Part shown: in pieces, positions 26,537 to 60,834 of the stretch | Layout: each line of letters starts with the position of its first letter | Numbering within the stretch: position 1 is the first letter of the stretch | Source of the DNA: Candidatus Omnitrophota bacterium | Lineage (GTDB): Bacteria > Omnitrophota > Gorgyraeia > Zapsychrales > Zapsychraceae | DNA length: 64,000 bases | Assembly: GCA_015233405.1 (NCBI GenBank) | Contig: JADFXT010000001.1 | Span: 105,386 to 169,385 of the forward strand | Reading direction: 5' to 3' | The notes under the pieces: model-generated | Seen by the model: only the letters and a program-made list of their open reading frames with translations | What the model was told of the DNA's origin: nothing | Databases searched by the model: none | Position numbers and translations under genes: made by a program

Positions 26537-27173
26537 GTTATATCTTATCCTGGATACGGAAGTTTGCGGATATGGCCGGCTTTTGGATATTGCCAAAAAA
26601 GCATTTCGCGCGGGTGTTAATATCTTTCAGATTCGGGATAAAAGAGGCTCTGTCCAAGAGATGCTTTTGTTTTCTCAGAAAATGGTCAGGATGCTTAATA
26701 AGAAGGCCTTGTTCATTGTAAATGACCGTGTTGATGTGGCTTTGGCTGCTGATGCCGATGGCGTGCACGTCGGGCAAGAGGATTTGCCGTGTTCGGTTAG
26801 CCGGGACATTTTGGGAAGTGACAAACTGGTCGGTGTTTCCTGTCAAACCCTTCGGCATGTGGAAAGAGCACAGCAAGCTGGAGCGGATTATATCGGGTTT
26901 GGGTCTGTGTTTAAGACGTTGACAAAACCAGGCCGTCAGGCGATGGATTTAAATTTTCTCAAGCACATTGTCAAAGAAAGCCGGATTCCGTTATTCGCCA
27001 TCGGTGGAATTAATTTTGACAACATTTATTCTGTGACGCAAGCGGGAGTGAGCCGTGTTGCCATTTGTCGGGCGATTTGTCAGGCAAGGGATGTTGAACG
27101 GACAACGAAATCTTTTAAGGATTTTTTGGCTGGGAAAAAATATGGGATATCGGCGGGTATTTTGCGAGGGTAA
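26502..27173 (+). CDS. thiE: thiamine-phosphate synthase
   Basis: 223 aa; LYLILD, QIRDK, VNDRVD, GVHVGQED, FAIGGI. The stop codon lies inside the tRNA-Gly acceptor/D-arm. Confidence 0.9.
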   Translation: MQWRKKLLKDSKLYLILDTEVCGYGRLLDIAKKAFRAGVNIFQIRDKRGSVQEMLLFSQKMVRMLNKKALFIVNDRVDVALAADADGVHVGQEDLPCSVSRDILGSDKLVGVSCQTLRHVERAQQAGADYIGFGSVFKTLTKPGRQAMDLNFLKHIVKESRIPLFAIGGINFDNIYSVTQAGVSRVAICRAICQARDVERTTKSFKDFLAGKKYGISAGILRG

Positions 27174-27234
27174 TTCAATGGTAGAATGTCAGCTTCCCAA
27201 GCTGAGAATGCGGGTTCGATTCCCGTCCCTCGCT
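27164..27234 (+). tRNA. tRNA-Gly (anticodon CCC)
   Basis: Folded by hand: acceptor GCGAGGG/CCCTCGC, D-stem ATTC/GAAT, anticodon stem TCAGC/GCTGA with loop TTCCCAA, T-arm GCGGG-TTCGATT-CCCGT, discriminator T. No encoded CCA. Confidence 0.95.
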
Positions 27235-47747: not shown

Positions 47748-47906
47748 TTGTTTTTCAAGAAGGAAACACAAAGAAAGCGTTTCCAGAACATCGATTCCCT
47801 CGCCTTGTTTTTTCCCTTTTATATGTAATACTTTATGTAGTAATGGATCTGCATCTATGACTCTGCTTCGTTGGTTTTAGACAAACCTTATACAGGGGGA
47901 GAGGAA

Positions 47907-50900
47907 ATGAAATATTTCCATAAAATCATTAGCAGTGTCATATTAGTTGCCTTTTTTTTCACCTCGATTTTACCGCCGGCGCGCGCACAAGAAATGCCCT
48001 GGATGCCCGTGCCCGGAATGGCAGTGGCCTTAACTCCCACATTTACTCCTGCCTATCTTAAAGGGATGGTGATTCATCCCAACGACCCGTTTAAGTTTGA
48101 TTTCATCATATATCGTGGAGATAAAAATCTTGGCAAGGATGATAAGCAAGATGAATATTCGAAGCTGATTAAGTATTTTTTAGCGGCCTTGGCTGTTCCT
48201 GATACTGACCAGTGGGTGAACCTCTCGCCGTATGAGAAAAATAGAATCATTCCTGACAGTTTCGGATTAACAGAAATGGGCCGGGATCTTTTAGCCCAGG
48301 ACTATCTGTTAAAGCAAATTACAGCATCGTTAATGAGTCCAAATACGGAATTGGGGAAAAAGTTCTGGGCCTCCGTCTATGAGAAAGCGTATGAGAAGTT
48401 CGGGAAGATGGATATCCCGATGGATATTTTCAATAAGGTTTGGATCGTTCCGGACAAAGCGGTGATTTATGAGAAGGACAATACGGTTTATGTGCTGGAA
48501 AGTCATTTAAAGGTGATGACGGAGGAAGATTACGAAGCGCTCAAAATGAGCGCGGAGTCCCGAGCTACTGCGAGGGATTTAGCGGCACAAAAGACTGTAG
48601 GGGCGGGGTTTCCCCGCCCTGATGATAAAGGGCGCGGGGACCGCGCCCCTACACAGATCATCAAAGAAATCATCATTCCTGCCCTTGAAAAAGAAGTCAA
48701 CACGGGAAAAAATTTCGCACCGTTACGCCAAGTCTATAGCGGGATGCTTTTAGCGACGTGGTACAAGCGAAGCTTAAAGGAATCTATCTTGGGAAAAATT
48801 TATGCGGATAAAGTGAAGGTGAAGGGTGTTGACCAGGACCCGAAGACGAACCAACAGATTTATGAGCAGTATGTGGCGGCGTATAAGAAGGGCGTGTTTA
48901 ACATGATCAAAGAGGATTATGATGCGTTGTCGAAGCAGATCATTCCGCATAAATATTTTTCAGGTGGGACGGAAGGGTATGTGAATGTAAAATTTGACCA
49001 TGCGATGATAAGCCGTGATCAAATCCAGCAAGGAAAGAAAAATAATGACATTGTTGGCGTTTCTTTGGTGAAGATTGAAGAATTCCTTAAGAAATCTCCT
49101 CTTGCTTCTGTGACGAATCGTTCATTAAAAATTGCACAGCAAAGAATGCAGCAGATTAAGCAAAGAATGTGGGTGAGCAAACTTTTTAGCTCTCAGCTAC
49201 ATACCCTGCAAAAAAGAACGTCGCGTTCAATACTTTGGGATTCTATTTTAAAAAGGGCGGTTATAAGAGTAGCGGATTCTTCTAGAACTAAGGCCGAAGC
49301 CTTTGCCGCGATTGATATGATTTTGGGGCTTATTGACTCTAAGCATGCTTGGAATAGCGAGTTAATAAAGTTTTTTAATGAAATAACCGGGTCCTCTCGG
49401 CAAAGCAACAATATAAGAAAGAGGACTGTTCAGGCGGAACCAGAATCAACAGCGGATTTGCAAATTGCGATTTATGATCTCTTTTTTGAGATACAAAGCA
49501 TCCTTAAAAGCGTAGAAGAGAAAAATTGGCCTTTTGTTTTTCATTACGGCGAGCAAGTCATCAAATATCTTGAACCTTCTAGTCAAGACAATCAAGCCCT
49601 TGTAAGTTTAAAACATACTTTTAATCCGCAAGCCTATACTCGTGAGTTGGGTTTAGATTCCAATGAATTAAATGAATTTATAAACAATGGGAAGATTGTC
49701 GATTTAATTCAGGCGGTGAAAGAGATTTCGAGGGCTTGGAGTCAAGCTGATGATGAGCGAAATCAGGTTCTCTATAAATATTTGCCTCGGGTGATTCGTG
49801 TTGAAAGCATTCTTAATACGATTGTAGAGGCTTTTCAGGGCAAGAGAGATATGAGAGTGGATTTTGAAGTTTATAGAGAGGGACGGGCTTTAAGTACAGT
49901 GAGTCTTTTGGATATTGAAGACGCTGTGAATCGGTCGCAGAATCTTGTCAAGGGTGATCGTGCGATGGTGACACAAAAATCAATGGAAGAAAATAAGACG
50001 CGTTTGTTGTCTTATCAGGTGGAGCAATTGATTGTCAAAAAGGAAACCACCGACGTCGTATTGACTAATAGCGGATATTATAAGATGGAAATTGCTTTAA
50101 GGTCGAAATTAGACGGCAAAGTGGTCAAATTTGATGAGGAAAATTTTAAGGAAGATTTTGATCTTAAGATCTTAAAACAGACCACTGACTTTGGAGCCTG
50201 GGCAGGCCCGGAAACAGCCGGGAATAATCCTCGTCGGCTTATTTTGGCTATGACCATTGATTCTAAGAATGTTGGCCATGATCTGAAGAAGGCGAGAAGC
50301 ATTTTGGAAATCGTCGCCAAAAATATGAAAAAGTATCTTTATGTTACCGACCAAGCGATGACAACGGCGGATGCCAAGAAAAATATAGGGAATACTATCC
50401 AGAAATTCATTGATTTAGTACATCCAGGGACTTTTTATAATGATAGAGAAGATTTGCGTCCGCATCGGCAGCTGGAAAGTATGCTGACTGCGTTAAAGAT
50501 TCCGGTTCAGGCCGCCCAAACAAAAGCAGACTGGGGTGCTATTGTAAAGACTTTGGAAAGCGATTGGGACACGACCTTTAATTTGATAGACAATCTTTCT
50601 CATGAAAGCTTAAAAGGTCCGGAGCAGTTTGATTATTTCCGAAAAAAGGCGTTAAAGGTCGAGTTAAAGAAGATGTTTCGCAATCTTAATACTTTGATTC
50701 GACAATCCGCTAACCAGGCGATGAGCGTGGATTTGAACTATGCGTTAGATGCGGAAGAACGGCCAGCGTTTGAATCTTGGACCAAAGATTATCAAGAAGG
50801 CCGAATGACCCAGCCCAATTTTATAAAATTGTTGGAGGGGCTTAAATTAACAAAGGAAGAAATTAAATCCATCGTGGCCGACTTGGATAAAGCAAAAGCT

Positions 50901-53900
50901 GGTGACCATGCGATGACGGTGGAGAAGATACAAGCTGCCATTCCTGTTGCCGTGAGAACGCATACAGGGAAGTTCAGCTTCATTTATCAATCTGAATATT
51001 ACGGTAATCTCGAGTTATTAGCCGATAAAATGCTCGAGAATGCCAAACAACACAATCTCATGGCCATATCCACTTTTAATGGCTACATTATTTATGCCGA
51101 TGCAAACTCAACAAAGGGAGACATTGTAAATCAGTATAAAGAACAGATTCTCGCTGGCGGTCTTCTGACTTCTCGGACGGCCCCAGGCTTTTATACGGAT
51201 TCCGAACATCAAGGAATAACAACAGACTCGAATTTGAGAAGATTGTCTCTGGCTAATCGGGATGTTCCTTATCTGGGCGTGGTTGATAGCAAGCCGTCGG
51301 TGTATCTCGATGGCAAAAAAATAGATTATACCGGCAAGATGGCGGTGGTGGAAGATATTGAGATGGAAAAGGCCCGAAATGTTGAATTGTATGGACTAAA
51401 TATGTCCGTCGATTCCTGGATTTTTGCGGTTAATTCAATATGGAAAAAAATCTCAGAGAGTAATTTTAAGTTCTGGCCCATAGACCTTTATTATCAGCAT
51501 GGTGGAGTAGGGTCATATGGTGTCGGGCCAGTGGCGTATTTGATGGTTAAAGCCGTCAAAGGATTTAGAATCAAGGTGGCCAGATATAAAAGCGACGATC
51601 TGGTCTTCTTAGACGCTGATGCCGTGGAATTGCGGCGTTCTTTAGGGACCGTATTTGCATCTGAGAAGGTGAAGAAGGATAAGAAGGCTGAACTTTTGAA
51701 GTGGTTAGTTCAGACCAGTGAAGAGTTAGTCAAACGGAATTCTTTTTTTGAAAACAAACTTCAGCCGCTTGCTAAGGACCAGGCGATGATTACGAAAGAT
51801 AAGGGAAAGAATAATTTGACTGAATTAAAGCGACAATTGTTTGAAACACAAGTATCGTTCGGGAAGTTGGCGATAAAATTCCAGGACCAGTTGACAAATC
51901 AACAAGGAAATTATGAATGGCCGATTTTGAATCGCGCAGAAAATGCCATAAAAGAAGATATGAATAAAACCCGGGATAGAATCGAAAGCCTTCAGAAAGA
52001 GATACGTCGAGCAAGAAGAGCCGATCACCCCATAGCGACAAAAAGTAATGAGAAGAATCAAACCAAATTGACAGAATTACAACAATTGACTAAGGCACAA
52101 ATTTTGTTCGGGAAGTTGACGATGAGATTGCAGGACCAGTTGACAATTCAGCAAGGAAATTATGAATGGCCGATTTTGAATCGCGTAGAAAAAGCCATAA
52201 GGGAAAAAATGCGGCAAACCCGTAGGACAATCGATGCCCTTCAAAAGAGGATACCTAAGGAACAGCAAACCGACAGTGCTATGGCGACGAAAGGCAAGGA
52301 GAAAAATCAAGATAGCTTGACGGAATTACAACAACAATTAACTGAGGAACAAATTTCGTTCGGGAAGTTGGCGATAAAATTGCAGGACCAGTTGACATAT
52401 CAAAAATCAAATTATGAATGGCCGATTTCGGATCGTGTAGAAAAAGCCATAAAGGAAGATATGAATAAAACGCGAGATAGAATTGAAAGTATTCAGAAAG
52501 AGATACGTCGAGTGAGAAGAACCGAGCGCCCCATGGCGACAAAAAGTAATGAGAAGAATCAAACCAAATTGACAGAATTACAACAATTGATTAAGGCACA
52601 AATTTTGTTCGGGAAGTTGACGATGAGATTGCAGGACCAGTTGACATATCAAAAATCAAATTATGAATGGCCGATTTCGGATCGCGTAGAAAAAGCCATA
52701 AGGGAAAAGATGAATATAGCCCGAGATAGAATCGAAAGCCTTCAGAAAAAGATACGTCAAGCGAGAAGCACCGACCGGGCGATGACCTCGGAGACTTTAT
52801 TGCCGCTTCAAGAAATAGAACAGATAGAATCGGATGCGACGAGGCAGTTCCCCAAGAAAGCGGTTGTTGTGGACATTCCTGAAGAGCCGGGTATTCACGC
52901 GAGGCTGGCTGCCCAAATTGTGGATGTCGCCAACCGGGTCCTCGAGAAGCTAAAAATCGAGTTGCTTATAAATCCATTTAATAAACATCGTGGATTTCTT
53001 GTGTCAGCAAGAAGCATATTGAATATTGAGCTTTCTGAGATCGAAAACGGTCAGACTGTTGAACTTTACGCGAAGGACAACGGAAATAATAAAAAAGAGA
53101 CTATTGATGCGGTCTTCAATATACTGGAACGGCTGTTGCATGACGTTCGAATTATTCATACAAATATTCATGAATACGTCAACGAGGTCGACAAATTAGC
53201 GGAGAATATCGACCAGGCGATGACGGCGAAAAACATAATAAGTACTCTGCCTGCGGCCGTGAAAAATCATAAAGGGGCTGTTGTCATATTAAGGAAAGAA
53301 TACGGGGCCGCCGATATGAGGGGAGAAGTCGCAAATATGTTTTTAGAGCGCGACCAATGGCCCAAGGCGGACAATGTGATCGTTTTGACATCCTTTAACG
53401 GAGTTCTTCTTTATGTTTCAAAGGACACAAAAGACATCGATTCCGTCTTAACAACGCAATGGAGTAGCGCGTTGGAGAAAATGAAAAAAAATCCGATAAG
53501 TTTTAGCGTCCTTGCACAAGATCCTACGGAATCAAAGAGTACTTACAAAAAACATCTGGTCGACCGATCAGAAGAGTTTGGAGGTTCGCCGGTTGTGGTC
53601 GGCGCTATTGACCAGAAACTCGTCGTTATGACCAAGGAAACCATTGCGGCGATGAAAGCTGAAGCGAATATTCAAAACATCAGAGCGCTCATTCCACAGG
53701 CGGTGAGAAATCATCAAGACCATATTATGATCGTAAGTGATACCACTGTGAATCTTGATAATCTTTTGAGGAACATGATGAGAGAACAAAAGAATTCGCC
53801 GGATGAAAATGTCCTTGTGCTGGCATCTTTTAACGGGAGTCTTCTTTATGCCACAAAGGGTATGAAAGAATCTGAACTTATGAATCAGGTCCGAGAATGG

Positions 53901-55226
53901 TGGTCTCGGAACGGACATTTTGTCACTCTGGGACAACTTCCAGGTCAACCAGACAGGGAATATTTGGACGCCTTGATCCGTGAGTCTAAGAAATATGAGA
54001 GGTCTCCGGTGGCGGGTTCAATTAATAAACAATTAAGGATTTTTGTCAACGGAACGGAAATGGACCAGGCCATGACGGCGGCGGACGACGATTTTGACAG
54101 CTTTTTGCGCGCCAACAGAATGAGAATGGAGACAAACGAAACACGGGAAATCACAGTGAACAATGTTCTAGGAATACACATGAAACCCTCGAGAGCGATT
54201 TATCGAGCGGCAGAAGCGTTCGCTAAACAAGGTGTTTTTGTTACGATTGAAACTGAAGATGATATTGTCAGAATTTATGATGAGTCCGAGCCAAGTCTCA
54301 TCATGAGCATTCAAAGTTTAGGCATACAAGACGAGCAGCCAATAAAGGTAACAATCGATAGCCAAAAGAAATTGTCACCGGAAACGATCAATTTTGTCTT
54401 TGATAAATTAACGTACTTGTTGCAAACCAAAGCATTGCTTGAAAATCCAGAATGGGATACAAACAATGCCACAAAGATTTATTTAGAAGAGATCGCGCAG
54501 TTTTTTAAATCACAAGACAAGGCGATGACGAGCAAAGAAGCAGAGGCTATCGTTGAACAATTAGTGAAGCTTGGGCAAGACCAAGCTCGTGATAGAAATG
54601 CCAGGATGGATGAGGCCCTCAAGATCATAGCAAGACAAGAAAAAATCGATCATTTTAAAGTTGTTGAAATGTATCATTTGCTCTACCCGCATGGGGCTTC
54701 GGGGTTAGATTTTGCTCTTAGCAGGTTTTTAGATGACTGGGAAGACCCTGCAGAGAAAAGGGAAAGGAACAAGCCGGCCACTCTTACAGATAAGCGCGCA
54801 GAAGAGATTGTTGAAGGGCTGGTTAAATTAGCTCATGGAAACGCTTTGGATAGATCTGAGAGAGAGAAGGGTATATTTAAATTGCTAGGGCCTCTTGTTC
54901 CGAAAGATTTTCCTAAATTGTATGAGACTTTTATATCTAGATATCCAAAGGGTGCCGGTGGAGATTTTGATATCGGCAGGTATATATTGGATCAAGCCAT
55001 GTCGACCCGAACAATAAATCCCAAGATCTCCGACGTCGGACTGACTCCTGATACCAAAGGTGGTATTGATTTCAATTCCTCCAATCTTGACATGCAGATC
55101 AAGCGCGATGGAAAGGGCGTTGTGCTTCCGGTCAGCCAGCAGAATTTGGAATCGATTCATATTAACGGTCTCATGCCGGTGATTCTGGATATTAAGCCTG
55201 GCGTGTCATTACCGATATTTCAATAA
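47907..55226 (+). CDS. giant (2439 aa) signal-peptide-bearing modular protein with HPr-like domains and recurrent D-x-A-M-T/S punctuation
   Basis: Uninterrupted ORF. ATG 47907 follows GGGGGAGAGG. The N-terminus MKYFHKIISSVILVAFFFTSILPPARA-QE looks like a Sec signal. Internal repeats and domains are described under findings. Confidence 0.9.
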   Translation: MKYFHKIISSVILVAFFFTSILPPARAQEMPWMPVPGMAVALTPTFTPAYLKGMVIHPNDPFKFDFIIYRGDKNLGKDDKQDEYSKLIKYFLAALAVPDTDQWVNLSPYEKNRIIPDSFGLTEMGRDLLAQDYLLKQITASLMSPNTELGKKFWASVYEKAYEKFGKMDIPMDIFNKVWIVPDKAVIYEKDNTVYVLESHLKVMTEEDYEALKMSAESRATARDLAAQKTVGAGFPRPDDKGRGDRAPTQIIKEIIIPALEKEVNTGKNFAPLRQVYSGMLLATWYKRSLKESILGKIYADKVKVKGVDQDPKTNQQIYEQYVAAYKKGVFNMIKEDYDALSKQIIPHKYFSGGTEGYVNVKFDHAMISRDQIQQGKKNNDIVGVSLVKIEEFLKKSPLASVTNRSLKIAQQRMQQIKQRMWVSKLFSSQLHTLQKRTSRSILWDSILKRAVIRVADSSRTKAEAFAAIDMILGLIDSKHAWNSELIKFFNEITGSSRQSNNIRKRTVQAEPESTADLQIAIYDLFFEIQSILKSVEEKNWPFVFHYGEQVIKYLEPSSQDNQALVSLKHTFNPQAYTRELGLDSNELNEFINNGKIVDLIQAVKEISRAWSQADDERNQVLYKYLPRVIRVESILNTIVEAFQGKRDMRVDFEVYREGRALSTVSLLDIEDAVNRSQNLVKGDRAMVTQKSMEENKTRLLSYQVEQLIVKKETTDVVLTNSGYYKMEIALRSKLDGKVVKFDEENFKEDFDLKILKQTTDFGAWAGPETAGNNPRRLILAMTIDSKNVGHDLKKARSILEIVAKNMKKYLYVTDQAMTTADAKKNIGNTIQKFIDLVHPGTFYNDREDLRPHRQLESMLTALKIPVQAAQTKADWGAIVKTLESDWDTTFNLIDNLSHESLKGPEQFDYFRKKALKVELKKMFRNLNTLIRQSANQAMSVDLNYALDAEERPAFESWTKDYQEGRMTQPNFIKLLEGLKLTKEEIKSIVADLDKAKAGDHAMTVEKIQAAIPVAVRTHTGKFSFIYQSEYYGNLELLADKMLENAKQHNLMAISTFNGYIIYADANSTKGDIVNQYKEQILAGGLLTSRTAPGFYTDSEHQGITTDSNLRRLSLANRDVPYLGVVDSKPSVYLDGKKIDYTGKMAVVEDIEMEKARNVELYGLNMSVDSWIFAVNSIWKKISESNFKFWPIDLYYQHGGVGSYGVGPVAYLMVKAVKGFRIKVARYKSDDLVFLDADAVELRRSLGTVFASEKVKKDKKAELLKWLVQTSEELVKRNSFFENKLQPLAKDQAMITKDKGKNNLTELKRQLFETQVSFGKLAIKFQDQLTNQQGNYEWPILNRAENAIKEDMNKTRDRIESLQKEIRRARRADHPIATKSNEKNQTKLTELQQLTKAQILFGKLTMRLQDQLTIQQGNYEWPILNRVEKAIREKMRQTRRTIDALQKRIPKEQQTDSAMATKGKEKNQDSLTELQQQLTEEQISFGKLAIKLQDQLTYQKSNYEWPISDRVEKAIKEDMNKTRDRIESIQKEIRRVRRTERPMATKSNEKNQTKLTELQQLIKAQILFGKLTMRLQDQLTYQKSNYEWPISDRVEKAIREKMNIARDRIESLQKKIRQARSTDRAMTSETLLPLQEIEQIESDATRQFPKKAVVVDIPEEPGIHARLAAQIVDVANRVLEKLKIELLINPFNKHRGFLVSARSILNIELSEIENGQTVELYAKDNGNNKKETIDAVFNILERLLHDVRIIHTNIHEYVNEVDKLAENIDQAMTAKNIISTLPAAVKNHKGAVVILRKEYGAADMRGEVANMFLERDQWPKADNVIVLTSFNGVLLYVSKDTKDIDSVLTTQWSSALEKMKKNPISFSVLAQDPTESKSTYKKHLVDRSEEFGGSPVVVGAIDQKLVVMTKETIAAMKAEANIQNIRALIPQAVRNHQDHIMIVSDTTVNLDNLLRNMMREQKNSPDENVLVLASFNGSLLYATKGMKESELMNQVREWWSRNGHFVTLGQLPGQPDREYLDALIRESKKYERSPVAGSINKQLRIFVNGTEMDQAMTAADDDFDSFLRANRMRMETNETREITVNNVLGIHMKPSRAIYRAAEAFAKQGVFVTIETEDDIVRIYDESEPSLIMSIQSLGIQDEQPIKVTIDSQKKLSPETINFVFDKLTYLLQTKALLENPEWDTNNATKIYLEEIAQFFKSQDKAMTSKEAEAIVEQLVKLGQDQARDRNARMDEALKIIARQEKIDHFKVVEMYHLLYPHGASGLDFALSRFLDDWEDPAEKRERNKPATLTDKRAEEIVEGLVKLAHGNALDRSEREKGIFKLLGPLVPKDFPKLYETFISRYPKGAGGDFDIGRYILDQAMSTRTINPKISDVGLTPDTKGGIDFNSSNLDMQIKRDGKGVVLPVSQQNLESIHINGLMPVILDIKPGVSLPIFQ
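48597..48652. repeat. GC-rich double-hairpin palindromic element embedded in frame in the giant ORF
   Basis: GTAGGGGCGGGGTTTCCCCGCCC...GGGCGCGGGGACCGCGCCCCTAC forms two 8-bp hairpins bracketed by GTAG/CTAC. It has the same GTAGGGGCG...CGCCCCTAC ends as the palindrome at 60807-60834. Confidence 0.6.
51777..52772 (+). repeat. four tandem ~249-nt (about 83-codon) coding repeats inside the giant ORF
   Basis: Units start at 51777, 52023, 52272 and 52524. Long near-identical nucleotide stretches link units 2 and 4, and units 1 and 3. Confidence 0.9.
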
Positions 55227-55280: not shown

Positions 55281-55323
55281 AAATTAATTTAAAAAGGATT
55301 GCTTCGCTCGCAAAGACGCAATG

Positions 55324-55346
55324 GCGCTTCGCGAAGCGCTCCTACG
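55324..55346. repeat. GC-rich palindrome, degenerate member of the TTCGCGAA-core family
   Basis: GCGCTTCGCGAAGCGC is a perfect 16-nt palindrome (55324-55339) followed by TCCTACG. Compare GGCGGTTCGCGAACCGCCCCTACG at 60810-60835. Confidence 0.4.
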
Positions 55347-55900: not shown

Positions 55901-55996
55901 CTCGCCTCGTCTGTCATTCCCGCGAAAGCGGGAATCCAGAGTCACGAAGCGAGAATATAAAAACATGGATCCCCGCTAAAAAATTGCGGGGATGAC
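55901..55996. repeat. MITE-like palindromic element in the groES-groEL spacer
   Basis: Terminal inverted repeats GTCATTCCCGC (55913-55923) and GCGGGGATGAC (55986-55996). Each end also self-folds: ATTCCCGC-GAAA-GCGGGAAT at 55916-55935 and ATCCCCGC-N9-GCGGGGAT at 55969-55993. An outer stem pairs CTCGCCTCGT with ACGAAGCGAG. Confidence 0.5.
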
Positions 55997-57666: not shown

Positions 57667-57740
57667 ATTAAGGAAGTCCTGTGCCTGTTGGCACAGGACT
57701 CCCGGAAACATTTCGTTTCCGGTCGGGTTTATAATAAAAT

Positions 57741-57780
57741 AAGGGCGTGGATATTTTATCCGCGCCCTTATTATTTTATA
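57741..57780 (+). terminator. rho-independent terminator after groEL
   Basis: AAGGGCGTGGATA-TTTT-TATCCGCGCCCTT followed by ATTATTTTAT. Two further hairpins precede it at 57675-57700 and 57702-57722. Confidence 0.6.
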
Positions 57781-60806: not shown

Positions 60807-60834
60807 GTAGGGGCGGTTCGCGAACCGCCCCTAC
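60807..60834. repeat. perfect 28-nt GC-rich palindrome (REP-like; may act as a bidirectional terminator)
   Basis: GTAGGGGCGGTTCGCGAACCGCCCCTAC lies between the guaA stop (60789) and the dnaE start (60844). Confidence 0.7.

Follow-up and report, generated by a model that had tools for sequence, protein, structure and literature searches.

A REPIN-like GTAG palindrome translated within a hypervariable loop of a giant Omnitrophota protein

The element and its host gene

The DNA analyzed here, called the window, is a 64,000-nucleotide stretch of a Candidatus Omnitrophota genome (assembly GCA_015233405.1, contig JADFXT010000001.1, positions 105,386 to 169,385). It includes a giant open reading frame (ORF) that contains a GC-rich palindrome of 56 nucleotides at positions 48597-48652. 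The original prediction, made from the sequence alone, was that this palindrome resembles repetitive extragenic palindromic (REP) sequences, and it indeed has the anatomy of a REP of the GTAG type arranged as a head-to-head dimer. The segment is very probably a non-autonomous dimer of GTAG REPs that resembles a REPIN (REP doublet forming a hairpin), belongs to the type associated with subclass 2.4 REP-associated tyrosine transposases (RAYTs), and was inserted and tolerated in a protein loop. This reading is based on the anatomy of the element, its relatives, the absence of its peptide from homologous proteins, its location in a loop, the constraint on its reading frame, and the link between REPs and RAYTs in other genomes.

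Within the giant ORF (47871-55226), the element is translated as VGAGFPRPDDKGRGDRAPT, also given as VGAGFPRPDDKGRGDRAP(T), and adds about 19 amino acids to the protein without breaking the frame, as had been claimed. In the orientation of the element, frame 0 alone is open, and frame 0 is used. Frame two opens with TAG, and frame three runs into TGA-TGA-TAA in the spacer between the two REPs. Survival within the gene therefore required the single open frame.

The N-terminal domain that carries the element (408 residues) was predicted to be conserved, and it has 1335 homologues, most of which are labelled as hypothetical proteins of Candidatus Omnitrophica/Omnitrophota. The best of these are 65-68% identical. 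The domain matches no Pfam family, and a Foldseek comparison of its model with the PDB returned no match at E <= 0.001 (best E = 0.38). The giant gene had also been called a surface-protein gene. Toward this label, the protein shows a signal-peptide-like N-terminus only, and the label is not established.

Anatomy and folding of the palindrome

On the plus strand, the element reads GTAG, GGGCGGGG-TTT-CCCCGCCC, TGATGATAAA, GGGCGCGG-GGA-CCGCGCCC, CTAC, exactly as first quoted. Both hairpins (48601-48619 and 48630-48648) have perfect 8-bp stems that are 100% GC and enclose 3-nt loops. One stem directly adjoins GTAG (48597-48600) and the other the complementary CTAC (48649-48652), and the stems of both REP units open with GGG after GTAG. 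Only seven perfect GC-rich hairpins with stems of at least 7 bp occur in the whole window; two belong to this element, and a further two correspond to those at 60807 and 55324 described below. The halves of the dimer are also complementary to each other, with 25-nt arms (48596-48620 and 48629-48653) that match at 84% and form the longest inverted repeat in the window. The GC content of the element is 0.71, versus 0.42 in its flanks and in the ORF, which bears out the compositional contrast noted at the outset.

Folding of the mRNA had been proposed as a check. The 76 nt around the element are predicted to fold with an energy of -47.9 kcal/mol, versus -24.1 +/- 3.2 for shuffled sequences (z = -7.4; 0 of 200 as good). 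Sliding 70-nt windows over the 7.3-kb ORF average -12.0 +/- 4.8 kcal/mol, and the element is by far the extreme among them. The minimum-energy RNA structure is a single long hairpin, and the DNA fold agrees with it (z = -6.2). Thus, the two hairpins that were originally described are both present as perfect stems, but the favoured fold is one long, REPIN-like hairpin. The element is not an intrinsic terminator: its hairpin lacks the T-run that would have to follow (ACAGATCATC stands there), and a scan for terminators and promoters was blank at both 48597-48652 and 60807-60834. A search of the whole window with Rfam 15 at the gathering threshold found a tRNA at 27164-27234 as its sole match, and none at the element.

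Relatives within the window

The pattern GTAGGGGCG-N(4-34)-CGCCCCTAC has 0.00 expected matches in shuffled versions of the window. A perfect 28-nt palindrome with the same termini had been pointed out between guaA and dnaE, and it is a true relative. It begins 17 nt past the guaA stop codon and ends 9 nt ahead of the dnaE start. These genes were called by their domains, GATase and GMP_synt_C for guaA and PHP and DNA_pol3_alpha for dnaE. The degenerate copy placed by the prediction at 55324-55346 is present as well. Its TTCGCGAA core and CCTAC end are preserved, and it matches an intact variant in another locus, L113, at 24 of 28 positions.

The 28-nt form is known as a "double foot" REP, with 5' GT[AG]G and 3' C[TC]AC, and might have arisen from a central deletion of an inverted dimer (PMC6006769). 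The palindrome at 60807 is a double-foot REP, and the element at 48597 represents the undeleted dimer form of the same family.

Relatives in other genomes and metagenomes

Species-representative genomes were scanned with the pattern GTAGGGGCG-N(8-38)-CGCCCCTAC, which matched at least 120 stretches, with 125 matches listed. Among the matches listed are loci in Chloroflexota, Cyanobacteria, Desulfobacterota, Acidobacteriota, Bacteroidota, Firmicutes, Patescibacteria, Nitrospinota, and Planctomycetota, and in two Omnitrophota metagenome-assembled genomes (MAGs). Palindromes of 28 nt with co-varying inner bases account for 81 of the 125, and two-hairpin dimers of 46-56 nt account for 11. By our own estimate, random spacing would give about 270 matches by chance in 596 Gb. 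However, the genome matches are not explained by chance, because they are concentrated at 28 nt and are internally palindromic.

The exact 28-mer GTAGGGGCGGTTCGCGAACCGCCCCTAC occurs unchanged in at least seven of these loci (L010, L012, L038, L085, L088, L092, and L108), in MAGs labelled Nitrospinota, Dehalococcoidia, Deltaproteobacteria, Cyanobacteriota, Chloroflexi, and Calditrichaceae. Such identity across phyla suggests either horizontal spread together with a transposase or strong constraint by an enzyme. Similarly, many contigs from metagenomes and genomes contain a 23-mer identical to the left unit. When metagenomes were scanned for the REP unit GTAGGGGCGSGGNNNCCSCGCCC, at least 10 head-to-head dimers, at least 21 double-foot hairpins, and at least 102 single-foot matches were obtained. 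Identical units of 23 to 28 nt span many phyla and contigs with GC contents of 0.33-0.70.

Among the metagenome matches listed, a near-identical version of the whole dimer is found in the contig L131 (0.44 GC). This 55-nt dimer has both REP units as in the window element except for one loop base, and the spacers differ (TTTATTTTA versus TTTATCATCA). It is intergenic: a PEP-CTERM-type gene has a terminator-like hairpin behind it, and the dimer is located just past this hairpin. The flanks are unrelated, and similarity to the window ends exactly at GTAG and CTAC. The predicted kinship with intergenic copies is thus borne out, and an intergenic near-copy with such sharp limits shows the 56-nt unit to be discrete, portable, and independent of the giant gene.

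Other copies are located inside genes. By ORF length, 25 of the 125 genome matches listed are intragenic: each is located in a stop-to-stop ORF of 200 codons or more, and at least 50 codons from either end. This number is an upper bound, since GC-rich contigs yield spurious long ORFs (L015_896, L035, L037, L101) and the criterion over-counts. Three cases were confirmed as genuine genes with Pfam. A Hydantoinase_B protein contains the exact 28-mer found at 60807 in the window, read as GRGGSRTAPT, and a SEFIR/TIR protein contains a 46-nt dimer. A DUF2142/PMT_2 membrane protein from an Anaerolineae MAG (the L049 ORF over position 2106) contains three REP-like peptides, ARAGLRPAPT, VGATHASPLR, and VGAHSRAPLS. 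In protein annotation, VGAGFPRP..., GRGGSRTAPT, VGAQHAAPL, and similar peptides point to REP insertions rather than functional motifs.

The insertion site

The prediction had proposed that the segment of about 19 residues is an insertion, to be checked by alignment of homologues. In such an alignment, about 17 residues of the window protein (VGAGFPRPDDKGRGDRA) are extra, and they are placed between the strongly conserved blocks HLKVMxExDY and REIIxPAxEKEVNEGKNFAPLRQVYSG. The place is a hypervariable loop, which has 53 residues in the window protein and a modal length of 36 residues in the 101 homologues in which both anchors were located. Neither GAGFPRP nor GRGDRAP is found in any of the 120 homologues of the domain that were retrieved.

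An AlphaFold2 model of the domain (a 408-residue query from the ATG at 47907, with the homologue alignment) has a mean predicted local distance difference test (pLDDT) score of 69.7 and a predicted template modelling (pTM) score of 0.66. The inserted peptide, residues 231-249 of the query, is modelled as coil between helices at 206-225 and 247-266, and pLDDT falls below 50 at residues 228-237 and 239-242. A low-confidence coil that coincides with the hypervariable loop of homologues is in keeping with the suggestion that the element is tolerated inside the protein.

Given these comparisons, the explanation that the palindrome is a chance feature of native coding sequence, or an artefact of assembly, has next to no probability. 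The intact reading frame speaks for it, and nothing else does. A chance or native-coding origin was rejected because of the absence of expected matches in shuffles, the folding z-score, and the GC contrast. Moreover, a near-identical copy exists in L131, and the peptide is absent from the 120 homologues.

In the window protein, the peptide AESRxxxRDL (48558-48590; around 640-675 in L246) is found just upstream of the REP dimer, and the homologues P0073 and P0078 have it as well. Its DNA includes a small imperfect hairpin (GAGTCCC...GGGATTT). The segment may be an older, decayed insert common to this subgroup.

Recurrent palindromes in the same loop

Many homologues with longer loops show peptides there that look like translated repeats, including VIPAKAGIQ/H, SERSEESQKRDPS, ASEAKQSFKEIA...LRSTSRND, SSPNALIGDPG, and GQPGDMF...LNVKAPQGN. 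The loop DNA was examined for six homologues that were picked because their loops looked suspicious. Clear palindromes are present in five of these (L121, L122, L123, L245, and L246), and L247 is ambiguous. The long loops in the examined homologues are thereby shown to result from palindromic inserts. Those in L121, L122, and L123 are of a GTCAT...ATGAC type (GTCATTC...GAATGAC) that is unrelated to the GTAG dimer. Overall, a single position of one Omnitrophota protein family has taken up at least five different types of palindromic repeat. When the window gene is included, five of seven genes have their most stable 70-nt stretch in this loop. An additional homologue, P0060, has the loop peptide VGAGSKPVPT, which is the expected translation of a double-foot GTAG REP. 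Judging from the peptide, this loop probably contains such a REP.

Recurrent occupation of the loop by different palindromes is the sole part of these observations that goes beyond the literature. Perhaps the loop between HLKVM and EKEVN is more than permissive, and is a preferred landing or retention site for several unrelated families of palindromic repeats. This is unlikely, and to call the loop a hot spot is premature: the homologues were preselected for suspicious loops, so a statistical target preference is not yet shown. If the loop were preferred, REP-type elements would be a recurrent source of diversity in an exposed loop of a highly modular, variable protein.

The homologues also bear on whether the hairpin is a selected cis-acting RNA or DNA structure of its host gene instead of a neutral passenger. 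In such a role, it might cause a pause in translation, be processed by RNase III/E so that the N-terminal domain is uncoupled from the remaining mRNA, or act as a gyrase/IHF-type site, which has been proposed for E. coli REPs. Such selection would fit a structure of exceptional stability inside a 7.3-kb ORF whose two 8-bp stems are still perfect, and roles of REPs at the RNA level have been proposed (PMC3733652). However, none of the 120 homologues has the peptide, and at the same place they have unrelated palindromes or none. Also, the hairpin lacks an Rfam match, a T-run, and any terminator-like call, and the same dimer stands in an unrelated intergenic context in L131. A selected function is consequently improbable.

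Comparison with known repeat systems

GTAG REPs are defined as hairpins that have a GC-rich stem of 5-13 bp, a loop of 2-20 nt, and the tetranucleotide GTAG at the base (Di Nocera, De Gregorio & Rocco 2013, PMC3733652). They often form head-to-head dimers with GTAG outside, which fold separately or as one large stem-loop (PMC3733652). The window element shares the terminal GTAG, GC-rich stems in this range, and short loops. Its units are inverted with GTAG outside, have different stems (a heterodimer), and can form one large hairpin. The spacer is 10 nt long, versus 1-5 or 20-100 nt in most described GTAG dimers. The comparison is one of general anatomy, and the element is not placed in any of the 24 numbered GTAG families. 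GTAG dimers that are inserted in frame within genes, where they add 20-30 residues in flexible loops, have also been described; they are most numerous in Opitutus terrae, a member of the Verrucomicrobia within the Planctomycetes-Verrucomicrobia-Chlamydiae (PVC) superphylum (PMC3733652). The window element is likewise in frame in a flexible loop. In contrast to the described GTAG REPs, its host phylum, Omnitrophota, and its host gene are new, and no report of REPs in Omnitrophota was found in the literature. Thus, the kind of element is already known, and what is new is its host: the phylum, the giant gene, and the repeated occupation of one loop.

A second resemblance is to the REPs of TnpA_REP subclass 2.4, which corresponds to RAYT group 4. 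In the "canonical long" REPs of this subclass, the base of the stem consists of three G-C pairs (Quentin et al. 2018, PMC6006769). Both units of the window element have GTAG-GGG, and the 28-mer at 60807 has the double-foot form. In-frame insertions and a scattered distribution over many phyla are further points in common. The paper on this subclass stresses insertions in the transposase gene itself, whereas the host in the window is an unrelated giant gene. The occurrence in the window extends the GTAG/double-foot type tied to subclass 2.4 RAYTs to Omnitrophota.

REPINs consist of two inverted REPs that act as a replicating unit (Bertels & Rainey 2011, PMC3116915), and the window element similarly joins two inverted REPs in a single long hairpin. 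However, REPINs are defined as high-copy populations in Pseudomonas that are associated with RAYT groups 2 and 3, and the view here is of 64 kb only.

Rickettsia palindromic elements (RPEs) also are located in frame in protein-coding genes, and the intragenic RPE-4 and RPE-6 are CGTC-type repeats, according to work cited in PMC3733652. The window element differs in being GTAG-tagged and 56 nt long, and is not a member of the RPE families as that citation presents them. Like RPEs, it would be selfish palindromic DNA that is translated and tolerated in a genuine protein, and it forms a well-bounded case of this kind. RPE-1 is more than 100 bp long.

Transposase association and mode of insertion

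GTAG REPs are found in frame within RAYT-like ORFs at six other loci (L015, L108, L146, L163, L235, and L239), in each case between the HuH motif (MPNHxHGI) and the Tyr motif (WQRNYxEHxIR). REPs in frame at this place are a "unique feature of subclass 2.4" of TnpA_REP (Quentin 2018, PMC6006769). RAYT-like ORFs in these other loci match NCBIfam NF047646 (REP-associated tyrosine transposase) at E = 4.6e-16 and 3e-15, with scores that fall short of the equivalog cut-off. In L146, five REPs are located in or beside the RAYT-like gene, and one of them encodes the peptide VGAGFPRPG. The proposal that cross-phylum matches to the 28-mer are mostly inside RAYT genes was rejected, since this applies to 2 of the 120 genome loci listed.

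These observations suggest how the element might have reached its site. A copy of a GTAG REP would have entered the DNA for the disordered, hypervariable loop in the N-terminal domain of the giant Omnitrophota protein, perhaps in the form of a single-stranded hairpin that was mobilized by a RAYT whose gene is in another part of the genome. The copy would have survived because it landed in its only stop-free frame and because about 19 extra residues in the loop are harmless, so the insert would be neutral. The insertion would be recent, because both stems are still perfect.

Several points weigh against this account. A phmmer search of six-frame ORFs with E. coli RayT and the RAYT-like ORFs of L015 and L108 found no RAYT-like ORF in the 64-kb window, which covers a small fraction of a genome, and mobilization of REPs in vivo by RAYT/TnpA_REP is still presented as a hypothesis in the literature (PMC8266576). 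GTAG REP families are repeated within a genome in tens to thousands of copies (PMC3733652), and the 64 kb of the window include only two intact GTAG REP copies and one decayed copy. Because 56 nt is not divisible by three, 1 nt must have been gained or 2 nt lost in the event. Even the closest homologues reach no more than 68% identity, and the insertion junctions are not placed to the base. Finally, the loop of the homologue P0078 is just as long although it lacks a REP, so the element may instead have replaced an earlier loop sequence.

Some of these points would also suit an element that is derived from a REP but was placed without a RAYT, by illegitimate or template-switch recombination, by gene conversion, or as part of a horizontally transferred gene fragment. 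Such placement is in line with the lack of a RAYT within the window, the length that is not a multiple of three, the long loop of P0078, which suggests replacement over pure insertion, and the identity of REP sequences in distant phyla. However, similarity to L131 ends exactly at the GTAG and CTAC feet, as for a discrete unit, and the same REP is physically tied to RAYT-like genes elsewhere. Placement without a RAYT is accordingly very improbable. The features that underlie the preferred reading, a tolerated GTAG dimer of the RAYT-associated type, are collected in Table 1.

Table 1. Positions of the REP elements, the host gene, and related features in the window and in other loci
Feature	Location	Strand	Remarks
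Host gene, 2451-codon ORF	Window 47871..55226	+	Likely start ATG 47907; signal-peptide-like N-terminus; conserved N-terminal domain; long modular middle; conserved C-terminal motif
DNA for hypervariable loop (insertion host site)	Window 48519..48677	+	Between conserved HLKVM and P-x-L-E-K-E-V-N; 53 aa, homologue mode 36 aa
REPIN-like head-to-head heterodimer of two GTAG-tagged REPs	Window 48597..48652		56 nt; GTAG outside; in frame in giant ORF
Left REP unit	Window 48597..48619	+	GTAG foot; stem GGGCGGGG / loop TTT / CCCCGCCC
AT-rich spacer TGATGATAAA	Window 48620..48629		10 nt; three stop codons in one unused frame
Right REP unit, inverted	Window 48630..48652	-	Minus strand: GTAG, GGGCGCGG / TCC / CCGCGCCC
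Degenerate double-foot REP GCAATGGCGCTTCGCGAAGCGCTCCTAC	Window 55319..55346		Spacer after giant ORF; left foot decayed
Double-foot GTAG...CTAC REP GTAGGGGCGGTTCGCGAACCGCCCCTAC	Window 60807..60834		Perfect 28-nt palindrome; intergenic, guaA stop 60789, dnaE start 60844
RAYT-like gene with in-frame REPs	L146 67-1005
RAYT-like gene with in-frame REPs	L163 887-1537
RAYT-like gene with in-frame REPs	L235 4595-5143
RAYT-like gene with in-frame REPs	L239 99-773
RAYT-like gene with in-frame REPs	L015 2721-3434
RAYT-like gene with in-frame REPs	L108 1-282
Loop palindrome	L121 10616-10792		In frame; GTCGTTGCGAG...CTCGCAATGAC
Loop palindrome	L122 10631-10759		In frame; GTCATTCCGGCGAAAGCCGGAATCC
Loop palindrome	L123 10625-10759		In frame; GTCATTCTGAG...CTCAGGATGAC
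Loop palindrome, other type	L245 1037-1249		In frame
Loop palindrome, other type	L246 601-792		In frame

Additional features of the window

The C-terminal motif GGID..(N)L..QIKRDG.G.PLP..QQ (around 55080-55223) is common to members of the protein family. The window protein looks like a family member in which about 1900 residues have been inserted between two conserved ends, the N-terminal one being encoded at 47907-49130. The motif D-x-A-M, usually DQAMT or DRAMT, occurs 11 times in the giant protein (positions 376, 696, 827, 1012, 1303, 1468, 1635, 1781, 2065, 2216, and 2374), versus 0.34 times expected from shuffles (maximum of 3 in 1000). It appears to be placed at the boundaries of modules, and like strings are found after the N-terminal domain in several aligned homologues. 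D-x-A-M might serve as a linker, or mark processing sites in an architecture that resembles a polyprotein. Two stretches of the giant ORF match the HPr-like family PTS-HPr (PF00381), with residues 1667-1753 scoring best. A tandem array at 51857-52775, in which a 249-nt unit is repeated 3.7 times (79% matches), encodes modules of the form FGKL..QDQLT.QQGNYEWPI.

Other types of palindrome also occur in the window. The sequence GATTGCTTCGCTCGCAAAGACGCAATG (55296-55323) is directly 5' of the decayed GTAG REP, which makes the spacer downstream of the giant ORF a patchwork of repeat remnants. Upstream of groEL (56029), positions 55969-55993 contain ATCCCCGC-N9-GCGGGGAT, followed by GACA; on the minus strand, this palindrome resembles the GTCAT...GGAATCC family from the loops of homologues. 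Within the region scanned, the terminator-like site that ranks best is an inverted repeat with 24-nt arms and a T-rich tail directly after groEL (57730-57780).

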